This document shows, in pieces, positions 17,520 to 25,959 of a stretch of DNA of 64,000 nt; position 1 is the first letter of the stretch; each line of letters starts with the position of its first letter. Location of the stretch: the IMG/VR virus record IMGVR_UViG_3300009149_007655. One strand, given 5' to 3'. Position numbers and translations under genes: made by a program. This stretch comes from a virus. The notes beneath the pieces are model-generated. The model made no database searches and was not told the origin of the DNA. It was given only the letters and a program-made list of their open reading frames with translations.

Positions 17520-17786
17520 TTATTTCACCTTTACTGAAACTGGAGTTCTTGGATTTGAGAGGTTTATAATAATATCAACATTTTTAAATGAATCAAATGT
17601 TGTGATTATTTTATCTTTTGTTTCAGGAGTCATAAAAGCATCGGCAGCATATAGATGCATACCTTCTTTTAAATTGAAAACTATACCATCATGAGTTTGT
17701 TTAATCTCCATAATGTTTTTTCTCATTAATGTAATTTCAATATCTGCCTTTTGTATTGTTACTTTTTCAGTACTTTCTTCACTCAT
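17520..17786 (-). CDS. hypothetical protein, distal gene of the RNAP cluster
   Basis: 88-aa ORF tightly packed after ORF 17788..18387. Confidence 0.35.
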   Translation of the reverse strand: MSEESTEKVTIQKADIEITLMRKNIMEIKQTHDGIVFNLKEGMHLYAADAFMTPETKDKIITTFDSFKNVDIIINLSNPRTPVSVKVK

Positions 17787-17787
17787 A

Positions 17788-18387
17788 TTATTCTCCCTTT
17801 TGCAATATTCGTAGAACTATTTCCATTTTATTTTTCACAGTATTCGAAATTATAAACCTAATCATGCCTAGTTTATAATATGTTCTAAGAAAAATAGAAA
17901 CCATCTCGGTCATATTTGAGATCTCAACTACTTCATCAACTTCTTTCATTATCTTTAAAGAATTTGAATTACAGTATTCTTCAACATCAATTTCCTTCAA
18001 ATTTACCCCAAGAAAGTCCCACAATCTATCTAAGAATTCTATATTATCATATTCCAAAAATTCTATAAAAGCATATACCTCATCAAAATCTTTTTGCCCT
18101 TCAAGAGAAATTGATTCTGGAAATACGAATTCATACAATTCTTCAATTCTATCAAGAATGCTAAAACATAAATCTCTTTGTTCTTCTATTGGTTGTTTTC
18201 TAATAGAATCCTTTGATATCATAAAATTAGATTTAAAATCTTCCGCCCCTATACTAGAAATAATAATAGCGCTATCATAGACATCCGATATTCTTTTTTC
18301 TAATCCTTTCTGCTCTTCTTCATCAAGTTCATATGTTTTTATACTAGCTCCTGCTAAGATTCTTTCACTTGAAGTTATATCTTGCAT
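17788..18387 (-). CDS. acidic hypothetical protein immediately downstream of the RNAP beta gene (possible accessory subunit)
   Basis: 199-aa D/E-rich ORF with a 2-nt gap to the beta subunit gene. Confidence 0.4.
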   Translation of the reverse strand: MQDITSSERILAGASIKTYELDEEEQKGLEKRISDVYDSAIIISSIGAEDFKSNFMISKDSIRKQPIEEQRDLCFSILDRIEELYEFVFPESISLEGQKDFDEVYAFIEFLEYDNIEFLDRLWDFLGVNLKEIDVEEYCNSNSLKIMKEVDEVVEISNMTEMVSIFLRTYYKLGMIRFIISNTVKNKMEIVLRILQKGE

Positions 18388-18388
18388 T

Positions 18389-21300
18389 CTATTGTCCTCC
18401 TAGCATCATAGCTACCATATAAGCGTTCAAAAGATCTTTTCCTGGGGTAACTTTAGCTGGTCTATATTCAGCATTTCCACTGTTTATAATATCAGCAATT
18501 ATTTCATTTTTAGTTCCTTGATCATCTGATAGTGGACCAAAAAATTCTGCCAATATTAATGGACAGTTATAAGAAATTAAGGAATACGTATCCAACTCTC
18601 CCATTCTTTGACCACCATCTTTTTTCTTTCCTGCTGTTGGTTGTTGAGCTTTTCCTGTCATTGGTCCAGTTGATCTGGCATGTAGTTTCTCAGATCCTAT
18701 ATGCTCCAACTTTACAAAGTATGTATATCCAACAGGAACAAGTTCCTTCGTTTTAGTATTATATTCTGGTAGTTTTAAATTATATCCGCTTTTCAAATTC
18801 AAAACTTTCATTGCAGATAGTATCTCTTTATAAGCAGGAGCTTTAAATGGGGGTATTAATAACGTAAAGTTCCCAGTAGCTTTAACTTGCTCTGTGAATA
18901 ATTTGAATTTAGCTGCCGATAGCGCCATGAAGTTTTTTATAATTCCAGATGCAAAATCTTTATTTTTAGCATACAACTTTGGAAGAACTGATTTCATTAA
19001 AGTAATAACAGAAGCTTTAGATGGAGAAGCTATTACTCTTTTTGCCATCTCTTTACTTATTAGACCACTATATAATTCATAAAACTGCCCCATATTCATT
19101 CTATTAACAACTCCAATTGGATTGCATATAATATCAACCTTATCTCCCCACGGAGTAACTGGCATCAATTCATCTTTTTCTATTAATGATATAATTCCTT
19201 TTGCTCCATGACGATTGGTCAATTTATCTCCAATCCCAACATTCAAAGTTTGCTCAATTTTAAATCTAATTAGAACTCCTTTAATGGTAGTTCCTCTTTG
19301 TGTAAATTTCTCTTTGGGTGGTTTTTTATATTTTTTAGCTGTTCTATCAGATAATTCTTTTAGTTTTGGAAATACAGAATCGGGAACATTTCTAAAAACT
19401 TCAATATCTACAATTGTTCCACCTGGAGATTTTTTAATAAATTGACCTCCATAAACATCTTCTCCCTCTATCTCATCTTCTATTCCAAGGAGTTGTTCAA
19501 TTTCTCCAACTGTCTTTCTTAAAATAGGTTGACCCTTTTTAGTAACATCTCCAATACTTGCAATTTCCATCAAACGATCTTCTTTTGATAAAAGGACTTC
19601 TTCTACGATTCCGTGTAGAGATGCTAATTTTTCTTCCTTCATCACAGACTCACTAATTACAATTCCATCCTCAAAGTTATACCCTTTATATGGCATTAGA
19701 GCAACACATAAAGTTCTTCCTAGTGATATAGATCCTCCTGATATGGAACTACCTTCAGCCACAATTGATCCGCTCTTTATTGCCTGTCCTTCTTTAATAT
19801 TTGGTTTAAACACACTCAATGTATCTTTACCAGACCCTGATTTCAAATGAACTGGAGTAATATCAATAACATTTTTCTTTCCATTAGTACAAGTTACAGT
19901 AATATCATCACCAGTAATTTTTGTTATCTTTCCTGAACATGGAGCTTTTTTAATAAACACATCCGATAATGAATTAGTTAATAATGATTCATACCCAGAT
20001 TGAACAATTGGTGGTTCTGGATTTTTAAGAGGAACAGCTTGTCTACTCTGATTAGCACCAAACATTACTCTAGCTCCATCATCATTTTCAATAAAAGGAA
20101 TCATACAAGTAGTGGTAGACAATAATCCAGAGTTTTCTCCTTCTTTCATTTCTTTCTCTAAAAATAAACCCCTTGCTGACGTAATGTAAGCATCAACTGT
20201 CAAGTGTTGAGAGATCCCAACATTCTCACTTTCTGAAGTATCCAATGGGTCGATATTTCCATACATTGATGGATGTACATCTCTACCTTCCATTGTAATA
20301 CCACCTTTGTCAGGAATTCCTCCTATTGATTTTCCTATTGGAGAAACTCTTGTCATTGATGCCATCTCTTCTATTGGGTTTGCAAATTCCATATCGGTAA
20401 CAATTTCAGAATTTACAAATTCACTCATTACTTTACTTTGGGGAATGGAAAATTGTGCTTCTTCATTTCCGGATAATACCTTTTCCTTATATTCAGTATA
20501 TGCAGCTAAAATTTGTTTTTGAGCAAGATGAACAACAATTTCTGAATTTCTTATTCTTTGATTTGAAATATCATTTCTTGATTGAGTAAACCCAGTTACT
20601 ACTTTAGCTGCCATATAATGCATAATCTGTTCAAGATCATAAGGCAATTGTTTATTAATAAGAACTTGTTTTGCAACAGGATCAACAATATTTTCCAAGT
20701 TTGATTGAATAAGAAATGTTGAGTTTACCCTTCCTGTGATTGATATTATTACATCGTTAAAATAACCCTTAGTTCCAAATTCAGAATCACTTTGATGTTG
20801 TGAAAAATCATTTCTTATAAATGATTGACATAATTCTTTTTGAAGTTCAGATTCTGCTCCTTCTAATATAACATATTCTTCATCGTTTATTTTTGTAAAG
20901 AATTCCACATCTTTTGATGGTGCTTCCTTTGTAATTTTATGTTTTATTTTAAATGCTTTCAGTGATCGTTCAAACCCAAAACTGAATGATAATAATAAAA
21001 GCAAAGGGAGCTTATATGACGCCATATAAATGTCTAAATACGATTCACGCTTGGTACGCTTACTATGGATATGAAATGCAGAATAACTACTCTCAAACTT
21101 GGAATCATACGGTTTAGGAAAGGTTATTGGACATAATACTATTTGATTGATAAGACATTTTCTACGACCATTTATATTGAATGTACCATCTGCTCCTATA
21201 TTTGGAATGTCGATAAAAACTTCATGGGTATTTTTAAAGTCATCGGTAAGGACTACTTTTAATACACTAATATCTGACTTATCAATTTCTCCATCTTTCT

Positions 21301-25400: not shown

Positions 25401-25495
25401 TCTGTGTGAAATTCATCAGGTCGTGTAAAATACTCCGCTGATGTTACTGGGGTTAATCCTCTAAGATGCTTATCTAAATCTAAAAGAGCAATCAT
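22484..25495 (-). CDS. rpoC: DNA-directed RNA polymerase beta' subunit homolog (compact, 1003 aa)
   Basis: Catalytic NADFDGDAMAVYHP motif, GLFSETIFG (beta' GLFCARIFGP) and trigger-loop GERGTQMIMKTFHTGGA. No N-terminal Cys4 zinc ribbon, and far shorter than the 1407-aa E. coli protein. Confidence 0.9.
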   Translation of the reverse strand: MIALLDLDKHLRGLTPVTSAEYFTRPDEFHTEGLFSETIFGVVGSLDRKKIYSYIDLGTKLIHPTALEIILKLDKKIQKFLSTETTFSVDSGGNLIEDDSGVTGMEEFIKLFPKIKFRTGTATREKYAKLLANEYKSGNIFIDKLPIIPPEFRPAYKDESNGEWVVDKLNEIYQMIIRRVFQVRSSGKGPLADLLIYSLQNSIKDHDSYIRTKLAKKSGLIRNQMLGKRTDFSGRAVITPGPDLKIDEVGIPLRMAVSLFEPFILHQLMYKNKTIVKQLEDGIKEYLNLELSVDTVRRIFKGIKAGDKIPEPLYEIIFDATEVSMKGRVVLVKRDPVLHTASYAAYYPILHRGDTILISTLQVGAHNADFDGDAMAVYHPLTNEAQEEARTKMMTGTGTSRTDSLNFQLSMEMWAGLYTLTKNKSKPQSPISVKESDFETATDPFIPVKYRGVSTTMGRAIFNSCFPSTFPFQNEIITKKVGNRIIGELESRYKMDSVKKIVNNIKNVAFKWATIMSPSITIDILELPPEVYKIKDKLSKSSPEEAEVLLKQAEKIVQKHLEGTGFGDLMTSGAGKGMGQAMQILVAKGVIADPQGNILDPIAGSYSDGLSNKEFFNSASGARKGIIDRVLNTADTGYMSRKLAFVLNSVEADQYNMDCGTKRSLTVKLTGDLMKRLDGRYIGTKLFNPKNYKIGQVINLRSPIFCTSEKICFRCYGELLKRHKSPYIGIVAAQSIGERGTQMIMKTFHTGGAVELIKRDMIQDFIDGDPLAEMDKTAISKYLKQEENSIINQLPCTVTISMDDYSSSGSYRIEDDKVWVKSLLAKVEFEDTIFDIVLDYSVELGSYEIEKTQDQIKLTFPAYSTLLEVSTEASEIKGQIAFVERLLGGREILKDSAHLYKRVLAIYSPPLTDMDSVHIELLCSQVLRNRDNINIAARLVEPYDPILVNIKKVVFSGGFIQGLAFENIGEAVRTGLITSEESNPSIIEKIVTGEVVEDKKKRR

Positions 25496-25499
25496 AGTT

Positions 25500-25883
25500 T
25501 TATCTCATATTCTTTTTAAACTTTTTGGTAGATTGTGCTTTTTTAACTGCCGCAGGAATTGGGGTAGGAACATCTTTTGAATATCGTCCTTTCAACCTTT
25601 CAAGTTTTTGCATTATTACTTGAAGTGCTTCTTGATCTACATTCTCACTTCCTATCAACTTCTGAGCAATTTTTAATGAAAACTCAATCATCTTTGGACA
25701 TTTTCTTGATCCCCTTCCACACAAAGGAAATAAAACATCCTCAATTCTCATAAAACAATTTGGATGTTTTTTATAGTATTGTGCCATTCCTTCTTTAGTC
25801 AATCCCTTTATAAGAGATTGGGTAGAATCAGGATTTATCTGATCCTGAGCTTTTCGTAATAGTTCTTCCAGATAATGTATCAT
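25500..25883 (-). CDS. hypothetical protein, first gene of the RNAP cluster (candidate small RNAP-associated subunit)
   Basis: 127-aa ORF 4 nt upstream of beta'. No motif recognised. Confidence 0.35.
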   Translation of the reverse strand: MIHYLEELLRKAQDQINPDSTQSLIKGLTKEGMAQYYKKHPNCFMRIEDVLFPLCGRGSRKCPKMIEFSLKIAQKLIGSENVDQEALQVIMQKLERLKGRYSKDVPTPIPAAVKKAQSTKKFKKNMR

Positions 25884-25913
25884 GACCCCTCCAAATTTAT
25901 ATATAACGTAGTA

Positions 25914-25959
25914 CGAGGAAATACTCTTTTTAATATGTTCTCAAAAGAGTATTTCCTCG
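25914..25959 (-). terminator. 18-bp perfect stem-loop (cgaggaaatactcttttt / aaaaagagtatttcctcg) between ORF 25967..27415 and the RNAP cluster
   Basis: Long perfect inverted repeat with a 10-nt loop. It sits just after the stop of the 482-aa gene and before the RNAP cluster. Confidence 0.55.

Follow-up and report, generated by a model that had tools for sequence, protein, structure and literature searches.

The stretch analyzed here (the window) is the 64,000-nucleotide (nt) virus record IMGVR_UViG_3300009149_007655, in which positions are counted from the first letter. On its minus strand, between positions 17520 and 27415, lies what is probably the gene module for one of two multisubunit RNA polymerases (RNAPs) of an aquatic, uncultured jumbo-phage lineage. 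Five genes form an operon with intergenic gaps of 1 to 4 nt, bounded upstream by an 83-nt spacer and downstream by a 269-nt gap, and the gene for a 482-amino acid (aa) protein lies across the upstream spacer (Table 1). An earlier reading of the letters without database searches (the sequence-only reading) had proposed a dedicated operon of intact phage genes, with five open reading frames (ORFs) in which β′ precedes β, the reverse of bacterial rpoBC. All five ORFs are exactly where they had been placed, on the minus strand, the ORF coordinates confirm the reversed order, and the operon is borne out by its short gaps and by synteny conserved in 25 to 28 of 28 related loci of the same type (set 1, ~45-77% β′ identity).

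Table 1. Positions of the polymerase genes and associated elements in the window.
Feature	Position	Strand	Evidence or remark
482-aa predicted sigma-like promoter-specificity subunit, homolog of AR9 gp226 and phiKZ gp68	25967-27415	minus	outside the interval of the sequence-only reading
17-bp perfect hairpin with 12-nt loop GAGAACATATTA	25914-25959	minus	within the 83-nt spacer that separates operon and 482-aa gene
Promoter-like motif of the operon, window variant TTGAGAACATATTAAAAAGA	25925-25944	minus	core GAACATATTA at 25931-25940
127-aa conserved protein, operon gene 1	25500-25883	minus	synteny in 27/28 loci
β′, 1003 aa, unsplit, set 1 = mReC 'a' copy	22484-25495	minus	Pfam, PHROG, PDB, RpoC alignment
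β, 1363 aa, unsplit	18389-22480	minus	Pfam, PHROG, PDB
199-aa acidic protein, predicted all-helical	17788-18387	minus	synteny in 27/28 loci
Second promoter-like motif copy, within the 3′ end of the 199-aa gene	17870-17889	minus	84 nt before the 88-aa ORF
88-aa conserved protein, final operon gene	17520-17786	minus	synteny in 28/28 loci

Unsplit β′ and β subunits

The β′ protein matches the Pfam models Rpb1_2 (6e-27), Rpb1_5 (2e-26) and, weakly, Rpb1 domain 3, and β matches Rpb2_6 (2e-43) and Rpb2_3. Both fall into phage RNAP families of PHROGs, and in PDB searches both match bacterial β′ and β with E-values of 1e-55 to 1e-72. When aligned with Escherichia coli RpoC, β′ carries HNADFDGDAMAVY (NADFDGD, an instance of NADxDGD), the bridge helix and the trigger-loop base GERGTQMIMKTFHTGG, and it keeps the second zinc site (C659, C706, C712, and C715). 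The same alignment reveals a 28-residue deletion that corresponds precisely to the N-terminal Cys4 zinc ribbon, and the E. coli SI3 insertion is missing. The sequence-only reading had anticipated several of these features of β′: a retained sequence motif and trigger loop, no N-terminal zinc ribbon, and no large lineage-specific insertions. The β translation shows GDKLTNRHGAKG and NFEDG. Its core spans approximately residues 430-1363 and is preceded by an N-terminal extension of ~330-400 aa (about positions 21280-22480), comprising a globular domain and a low-complexity linker and having no detectable homolog; when set-1 β is compared with the β of the second polymerase set described below, the extension measures ~330 aa. 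In the window, as in most of the 28 relatives, β and β′ are each encoded by one ORF; judged by their sequences, the two window genes are intact, unsplit and catalytically complete.

Some relatives show other gene structures. Several set-1 β′ genes (P0068, P0109; L020, L024, L027, L028, L030) contain a ~380-aa insertion with an intein domain (PF14890), or are present as a 779-aa ORF and a remainder. Set-1 β consists of two ORFs in L012:4069-8179 (465 + 909 aa), where the N-terminal extension may be an ORF of its own, and in L023:13082-17380 (902 + 521 aa); these could be true fissions or assembly frameshifts.

A predicted sigma-like protein beside the operon

The 482-aa protein is as conserved as β′ (62-64% mean column identity), belongs to a family of 568 homologs of uniform length, and is encoded next to the operon in 25 of 28 loci. 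Sequence and profile searches gave no Pfam, PHROG, or PDB match, and the Sigma70 region 2 and region 4 models were unmatched. Its relationship to AR9 gp226 was exposed only by profile-profile and fold comparison, sequence-profile searches of the PDB having given nothing. Profile-profile comparison with the six-member gp226 family produced a match (probability 83%, E 9e-6) between residues 161-245 of the 482-aa protein and residues 183-266 of gp226, the segment that makes up the sigma2-like domain and contains the pocket-forming 2.1bis helix, to which the promoter pocket is due (PMC9209446). The AlphaFold model of the protein is confident (predicted local distance difference test, pLDDT, 81.8), and in a Foldseek search of 350,542 PDB chains its only significant matches were AR9 gp226 (7s01_A, which is gp226 exactly, and 7um0_A) and a chain of the phiKZ non-virion RNAP, or nvRNAP (8que_B); the next-best match had an E-value of 0.46. 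The 482-aa protein contains the sigma2-like fold, and this was the sole gp55-like fold found; gp55 and gp33 had no PHROG or Pfam match among the window ORFs scanned, the genome being incomplete.

Taken together, the profile match and the predicted structure identify the 482-aa ORF as a sigma-like subunit of the gp226/gp68 family. It differs from the sigma70 family in having no Pfam sigma domain and in its unique N- and C-terminal parts. A gp68-like factor had been sought by the sequence-only reading among the small ORFs that flank the polymerase genes; the actual homolog is the 482-aa ORF, which lies outside the region considered there. The gp226-type sigma-like subunit was previously known only from phiKZ/AR9-type phages with split polymerase genes, and its adjacency to the genes described here is a new point.

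Three small operon proteins

The 127-aa protein has two invariant cysteines (P-x-C-F ... P-x-C-N-R) and a basic C-terminal tail, and found no PDB, PHROG or sigma match; a Pfam DCB match is probably an artifact. The 199-aa protein has no PDB, Pfam or PHROG match and its AlphaFold2 model, made from six sequences, is unusable (pLDDT 50.7), while the 88-aa protein is without Pfam or PHROG match. Across Pfam, PHROG, PDB, and Cobetia phage Carin-5 comparisons, none of the three resembles sigma, omega or gp68. They evolve faster, with 37-42% mean column identity compared with 62-65% for the core subunits and the 482-aa protein.

Because of their tight spacing inside the operon, it is suggested that the 127-, 199-, and 88-aa proteins are polymerase subunits or dedicated factors. 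There is a substantial chance, although somewhat below an even one, that they are instead unrelated co-transcribed proteins, for example, host-takeover or anti-defense factors. They resemble no RNAP subunit or transcription factor, their divergence far outpaces that of the core and of the 482-aa protein, a separate internal promoter-like motif precedes the 88-aa gene, and the AR9 and phiKZ enzymes need just the core and a fifth subunit (PMC7598289). Their strict position in the β′/β operon in 27 to 28 of 28 loci, with 1-4 nt spacing, is however a pattern typical of subunits of one complex. Of the proposal that the small ORFs encode accessory or promoter-specificity subunits, the conserved partnership with the polymerase is supported and the specificity role is not.

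A conserved promoter-like motif and an overlapping hairpin

In nearly all relatives the consensus T(T)AGAACAAAwwATAAA is found 16-41 nt before the homologous first operon ORF, and in the window the motif core GAACATATTA lies 48 nt before the operon ATG. A position weight matrix was built from 17 motif sites and used to scan 1.6 Mb of related loci. All 46 matches were on the gene-sense strand, 39 were within 120 nt upstream of a start codon, and 32 were intergenic, although intergenic DNA makes up 5.6% of the sequence. The second site before the 88-aa ORF is conserved at the same position in L021, L025, and L027. The exact 10-mer GAACATATTA is present four times in the window, against 0.39 expected, always in sense orientation, and precedes the operon, the 88-aa gene, a KH-domain gene, and the head of the Dda helicase/clamp-loader operon. 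Near variants precede two further genes, and in one relative the motif precedes DNA ligase. Sigma70-type promoters are not enriched in the window (61 found, 74 expected). The KH-domain gene, directly downstream of an exact 10-mer (37392-37679), encodes a 95-aa KhpA-like RNA-binding protein (PF13083, 5e-18).

In the spacer before the operon, the motif core falls within the 12-nt loop of a hairpin whose arms (25914-25930 and 25943-25959) are 100% complementary. The 18-bp-stem hairpin noticed in the sequence-only reading is real (z-score −6.2; 0 of 200 shuffles fold as well), with a stem of 17 bp. There is no T-run after the stem, and in relatives a GC-rich hairpin with a T-run is usually found just upstream of the motif. 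Since the long stem is not conserved in relatives, the window hairpin is most simply an inter-operon terminator that overlaps the promoter. It is improbable that the hairpin is instead a promoter device, an extruded DNA stem-loop that presents the promoter core single-stranded to a polymerase which, like the AR9 nvRNAP and the N4 virion RNAP (vRNAP), can read such promoters. For such a device speak the exact location of the motif core in the loop, the initiation of the AR9 nvRNAP on single-stranded template DNA (PMC7598289), and short stems also predicted around the motif in L005, L029, L018, and L009. The three other exact motif copies in the window sit outside hairpins, however, and besides the lack of conservation of the long stem, most relatives keep the GC-rich hairpin and T-run separate from, and upstream of, the motif.

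GC-rich hairpins of 10-13 bp recur elsewhere in minus-strand spacers, ~20-30 nt upstream of the Shine-Dalgarno sequence and mostly without clear T-runs (11162-11248, 12290-12365, 14883-14963, and 17251-17519); these hairpins may serve a non-host polymerase as terminators or as elements of RNA stability. Downstream of the operon, a 395-nt non-coding gap contains a 135-nt near-perfect hairpin (16623-16757, minus-strand sense; folding free energy −87.7 kcal/mol, z-score −17.9) without an Rfam match, and the equivalent gap in relatives is also strongly structured.

Two polymerase sets in the lineage

A single-protein query of IMG/VR returned no match and an alignment-based query was needed; the alignment-based scan found at least 477 positive stretches, which fall into two classes. 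Set 1, the type found in the window (28 loci), has the order 482 aa, ~150 aa, β′ of ~1004 aa, β of ~1362 aa, ~199 aa, and ~86 aa. Set 2 (~50 loci) has a β′ of ~900 aa with a β of ~1005 aa directly after it. Six contigs hold both sets, ~35 kb apart on the same strand. There is no second RNAP set within the 64-kb window, and by synteny with these contigs it would be located ~11 kb past the left edge of the window. The sequence-only reading was unaware of this second, different pair carried by the lineage.

The two sets are distinct. The zinc ribbon is found in 0 of 29 set-1 β′ proteins and in 46 of 48 set-2 β′ proteins, and a neighbor-joining tree of β′ (336 columns, 200 bootstraps), which is rough and has saturated distances of 0.74-0.87, never joins sets 1 and 2. 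By sequence, both sets are nearer to bacterial subunits than to the phiKZ/AR9 PDB chains. The set-2 genes are surrounded by neighbors that all belong to unknown PHROGs, with no consistent upstream motif. A ~290-aa ThiF-family (E1-like adenylyltransferase) protein is conserved two to three genes upstream of set-2 β′ (for example, L033:8417-9307, L044:8288-9163, L065:8360-9220, and L038:5438-6307); this ORF was considered as a sigma factor and rejected, being ThiF-like.

A proposed holoenzyme and its place in infection

We propose that the holoenzyme would be composed of β′, β and the 482-aa sigma-like subunit, which, like AR9 gp226, would use its sigma2-like domain both to contact the core and to recognize a -10-like promoter element. 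The 127-, 199-, and 88-aa proteins would be stoichiometric accessory subunits or factors, since their genes are probably translationally coupled. The operon would be transcribed from its own promoter, AGAACAAAwwATAAA, common to the Dda helicase/clamp-loader operon, DNA ligase and the KH protein, and because it is shared with replication-type genes this promoter would mark an early or middle gene set. The polymerase would then be synthesized in the infected cell and go on to transcribe later genes. The hairpin would be the local form of the terminator that divides the sigma-like gene from the operon in relatives, now enclosing the promoter core. There is a parallel in AR9, where gp226 and the nvRNAP genes lie behind annotated early promoters, and early operons of jumbo phages that encode RNAPs are known to carry a conserved motif that bioinformatics can detect (PMC7598289).

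Several observations weigh against this proposal. The adjacency of the sigma-like gene may simply mirror the overall collinearity of these genomes, the subunit role of the three small proteins is presumed from gene position, and the second polymerase pair of this genome lies outside the window and is deduced from the six sister contigs. The AACA core of the motif, with a TA ~5-6 nt downstream, is similar to the AR9 late promoter AACA-N6-TA/G (PMC7598289), so that the motif could be read by this holoenzyme and not by the other polymerase. Finally, the N-terminal 336 columns of set-1 β′ (β′1) group with the AR9 virion β′N and not with the non-virion paralog (96% neighbor-joining bootstrap), and tblastn scores of β′1 are 130 bits with the virion and 76 bits with the non-virion β′N. 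The virion β′N is the closest relative of the N-terminal third of β′1 (30% identity). Both AR9 β′N paralogs are without the ribbon, and the ribbon-less junction of the virion paralog (FGxxGSxxRKxIxxYIDL) is nearly identical to that of β′1; its gene is split and intron-interrupted and its product virion-packaged, whereas the window β′ is unsplit. As a means of deciding orthology to the AR9 virion or non-virion set, the tblastn scores were ambiguous.

The β′ N-terminal phylogeny favors a virion-type enzyme. Set 1 would in that case be the functional counterpart of the AR9/phiKZ vRNAP, packaged in the virion and entering the cell together with the DNA, where it would transcribe the early genes. 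The ~330-aa extension of β would direct the subunit to the capsid or be a propeptide that the prohead protease cuts off. The motif would act as a late promoter, and the other polymerase, or both, might use the sigma-like protein. In addition to the phylogeny, the junction, and the tblastn score, the annotation of one AR9 vRNAP subunit notes proteolysis in virions, and baseplate and lysozyme genes are found just upstream in the same orientation. In its ATAAA(T) part the motif also resembles T4-type late promoters. We nevertheless consider a virion-packaged set 1 unlikely. The virion grouping comes from the rough tree with its saturated distances, β comparisons do not favor the AR9 virion paralog, and the motif is likewise found ahead of genes of replication type (the Dda helicase/clamp-loader operon and DNA ligase). 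The gp226/gp68 family, whose gene is the neighbor of the operon in 25 of 28 loci, is known only as an nvRNAP subunit (PMC7598289, PMC9209446). A non-virion polymerase is favored by the neighboring sigma-like gene and by the replication-type genes that the motif precedes.

Relation to mReC and other polymerases

The mReC lineage (multi-subunit RNAP-encoding Caudovirales) was defined from 97 viral contigs, each with β and β′ of at least 800 aa and NADxDGD (Weinheimer & Aylward 2020, PMC7481178), and is a deep clade next to Bacteria in the published tree (PMC7481178). The mReC study used β and β′ as deep phylogenetic markers, excluded the split phiKZ-type genes for long-branch problems, and its text makes no mention of sigma, promoter, virion, alpha, or synteny (PMC7481178). 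Its tables list the sister contigs Ga0180432_10000070 (149,482 bp), Ga0180434_10000255 (80,832 bp), and Ga0180433_10000139 (121,292 bp) (PMC7481178). For the 149,482-bp contig (L022/L044), the mReC tables give an '_a_' pair of 1005 + 1367 aa as well as a '_b_' pair of 900 + 1014 aa, and L021, L022, L024, and L028, whose β′ is 50-57% identical and whose synteny is the same, are listed as mReC when matched by metagenome identifier. The window genes are adjacent and, at 1363 and 1003 aa, above the 800-aa size used to define mReC. Placed by its sequence similarity to these listed relatives, the window lineage is mReC, with the 'a' copy, and does not differ from it in kind. What is new beyond the mReC paper is the sigma-like subunit, the operon partners, the promoter-like motif, and the contrast between the pairs in the zinc ribbon.

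The sequence-only reading had considered the arrangement unusual, on the premise that phage RNAPs are usually split or giant polypeptides; this premise is out of date, as mReC, Carin-5, and Rhizobium phage RHph_Y65 are precedents. Carin-5 has adjacent, unsplit β′ and β genes in the same order as the window, RHph_Y65 has an unsplit β′ of 1127 aa, and Yersinia phage YerA41 has the same β′-β order with β′ in two pieces. The RNAPs of these isolated, mid-size phages are ~25% identical to the window enzyme, their β′ keeps the zinc ribbon, and their β, of ~925 aa, is without the extension found in the window. The 'sigma factor' ORF of Carin-5 was rejected as a relative, having no Pfam sigma domain and being unrelated to any window ORF. 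Moraphages (PMC12619734), which are without RNAP, were rejected as the source lineage. Among marine jumbo-phage clusters, RNAP was found only in the phiKZ-like PGC_B (Weinheimer & Aylward 2022).

The window polymerase shares with the AR9/phiKZ nvRNAP a homolog of the fifth subunit gp68/gp226 (the 482-aa ORF) and a β′ without zinc ribbon; two polymerase sets, as in AR9 and phiKZ, are found on six sister contigs. It differs in that β and β′ are each one polypeptide rather than two or more pieces, the genes are in one operon rather than dispersed, and the core is much closer to bacterial enzymes than are the AR9/phiKZ cores. The three conserved small proteins and the ~330-aa β extension are additional to the AR9/phiKZ enzymes, and the motif sequence is unlike the AR9 early (AAATATATATTAT) and late promoters. 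Bacterial rpoBC lies downstream of rplKAJL, with rpoB first and a zinc ribbon in β′, whereas the window has the opposite order, no ribosomal protein genes, and a β′ with the ribbon deleted. There are no lineage insertions, and neither alpha nor omega was detected (no RNA_pol_A or Rpb6 match among the ~45 window ORFs scanned).

An uncultured jumbo phage lineage

The window encodes split topoisomerase II, UvsX-like recombinase, clamp loader, Dda-like helicase, primase, RNase H, ribonucleotide reductase, a baseplate hub/tail lysozyme (29518-30471), and an amidase, and contains no tRNAs or Rfam families over its 64 kb. Twelve window proteins have homologs in Bacillus phage AR9, including an RNAP-associated superfamily 2 (SF2) helicase, NADAR, an AAA + DUF2201 pair, a virion structural protein, and a baseplate wedge protein. 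The SF2 helicase co-occurs with phage RNAPs (Iyer et al., PMC7824862). The AAA ATPase and DUF2201 (VWA/metallopeptidase) genes are adjacent both in the window (7888-10391) and in AR9 (21938-24586). The T4-like context seen by the sequence-only reading is correct for the T4-type replication genes, but is qualified by the twelve genes with AR9 homologs. Tailed-phage hallmarks are provided by the baseplate hub/tail lysozyme and the homologs of the AR9 wedge and virion structural proteins; capsid and terminase genes are not within the 64-kb window. A megablast search with 24 kb found nothing similar among 50,697 phage records. In a collection of 5.8 billion proteins, more than 984 β′ homologs were found, on contigs of up to 309,612 bp, of which more than 120 are 51-77% identical and almost all of these 999-1011 aa long. 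The sigma-like family is present in only three contigs of metagenome-assembled genomes (MAGs), from unrelated taxa, among 185,579 species-representative genomes.

The lineage is a lytic-type, uncultured jumbo phage and not bacterial DNA. That β and β′ are host-derived rpoB and rpoC, whether recently captured or as pseudogenes, or that the contig is chimeric, is barely credible, even though the top PDB sequence matches are bacterial β′ and β. The sequence-only reading had named pseudogenization and chimerism with ribosomal or rplL genes as outcomes that would overturn it, and both were looked for. The two genes retain their catalytic motifs, stand in the opposite order to rpoBC, and encode proteins just ~25% identical to bacterial ones; the 64 kb is uniform in composition and contains neither ribosomal or rplL genes nor tRNAs or other known RNAs. 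The same synteny is found on hundreds of viral contigs, with at least 477 IMG/VR stretches, and baseplate and tail-lysozyme genes are near the operon. The family was not found in cultured genomes (only the three MAG contigs among the 185,579 species genomes), and the published phylogeny places the clade outside Bacteria (PMC7481178).

Other genes of the window

In an 838-aa protein (12366-14882), a vault repeat accompanies a Major Vault Protein shoulder domain (PF11978, 8e-20), and the gene is located in a local GC bump (0.38 vs 0.31). A 346-aa protein (58403-59443) is a full-length match to Volactin, of the actin family (PF25216, 7e-74), and could be a cytoskeletal element analogous to the PhuZ tubulin of phiKZ-like phages. 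The 132-aa ORF at 2089-2487 has the N-terminal methylation motif of type IV pilins and pseudopilins, GFTLIELMIV (PF07963, 2e-7), which hints at a Gram-negative host; the genome-collection matches, limited to MAG contigs of three unrelated taxa, yielded no host prediction. The 546-aa ORF at 2420-4060 has an N6/N4 DNA methylase domain fused to an Mrr-type restriction endonuclease domain. Tandem ~21-nt units (AGAAGAATACCATAAATCTAA-like) are found at 52503-52590, right after the stop codon of a 326-aa ORF (51522-52502).

Implications for the evolution of phage RNA polymerases

The polymerase pair of the window is a member of a lineage already described, and its residual value is in the phiKZ/AR9 link, the testable holoenzyme, and the promoter. 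Tentatively, and with the balance leaning somewhat against it, the mReC 'a' polymerase may be an unsplit relative of the phiKZ/AR9 enzymes: a minimal β′, β and gp226-type sigma, possibly with three small subunits replacing alpha and omega. If this is true, the split phiKZ/AR9 architecture, which Iyer et al. 2021 proposed to be a relic predating the last universal common ancestor, arose by gene fission from a bacterial-like unsplit ancestor, and a single ancient acquisition, with the sigma-like subunit already part of it, is common to the mReC and phiKZ-type lineages.

A three-polypeptide holoenzyme would be far easier to use for expression, structure, and promoter studies than the five-piece enzymes, with a candidate promoter at hand, and the missing assembly functions might be supplied by the three conserved small proteins. 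Work on the unsplit mReC markers and work on the split, alpha-less, gp68/gp226-dependent phiKZ/AR9 enzyme of uncertain origin have so far formed separate literatures. A gp226/gp68 homolog beside unsplit, ribbon-less β′ and β would be a concrete bridge between them, and the question of whether the split or the fused form came first becomes testable with sequences that are better alignable.

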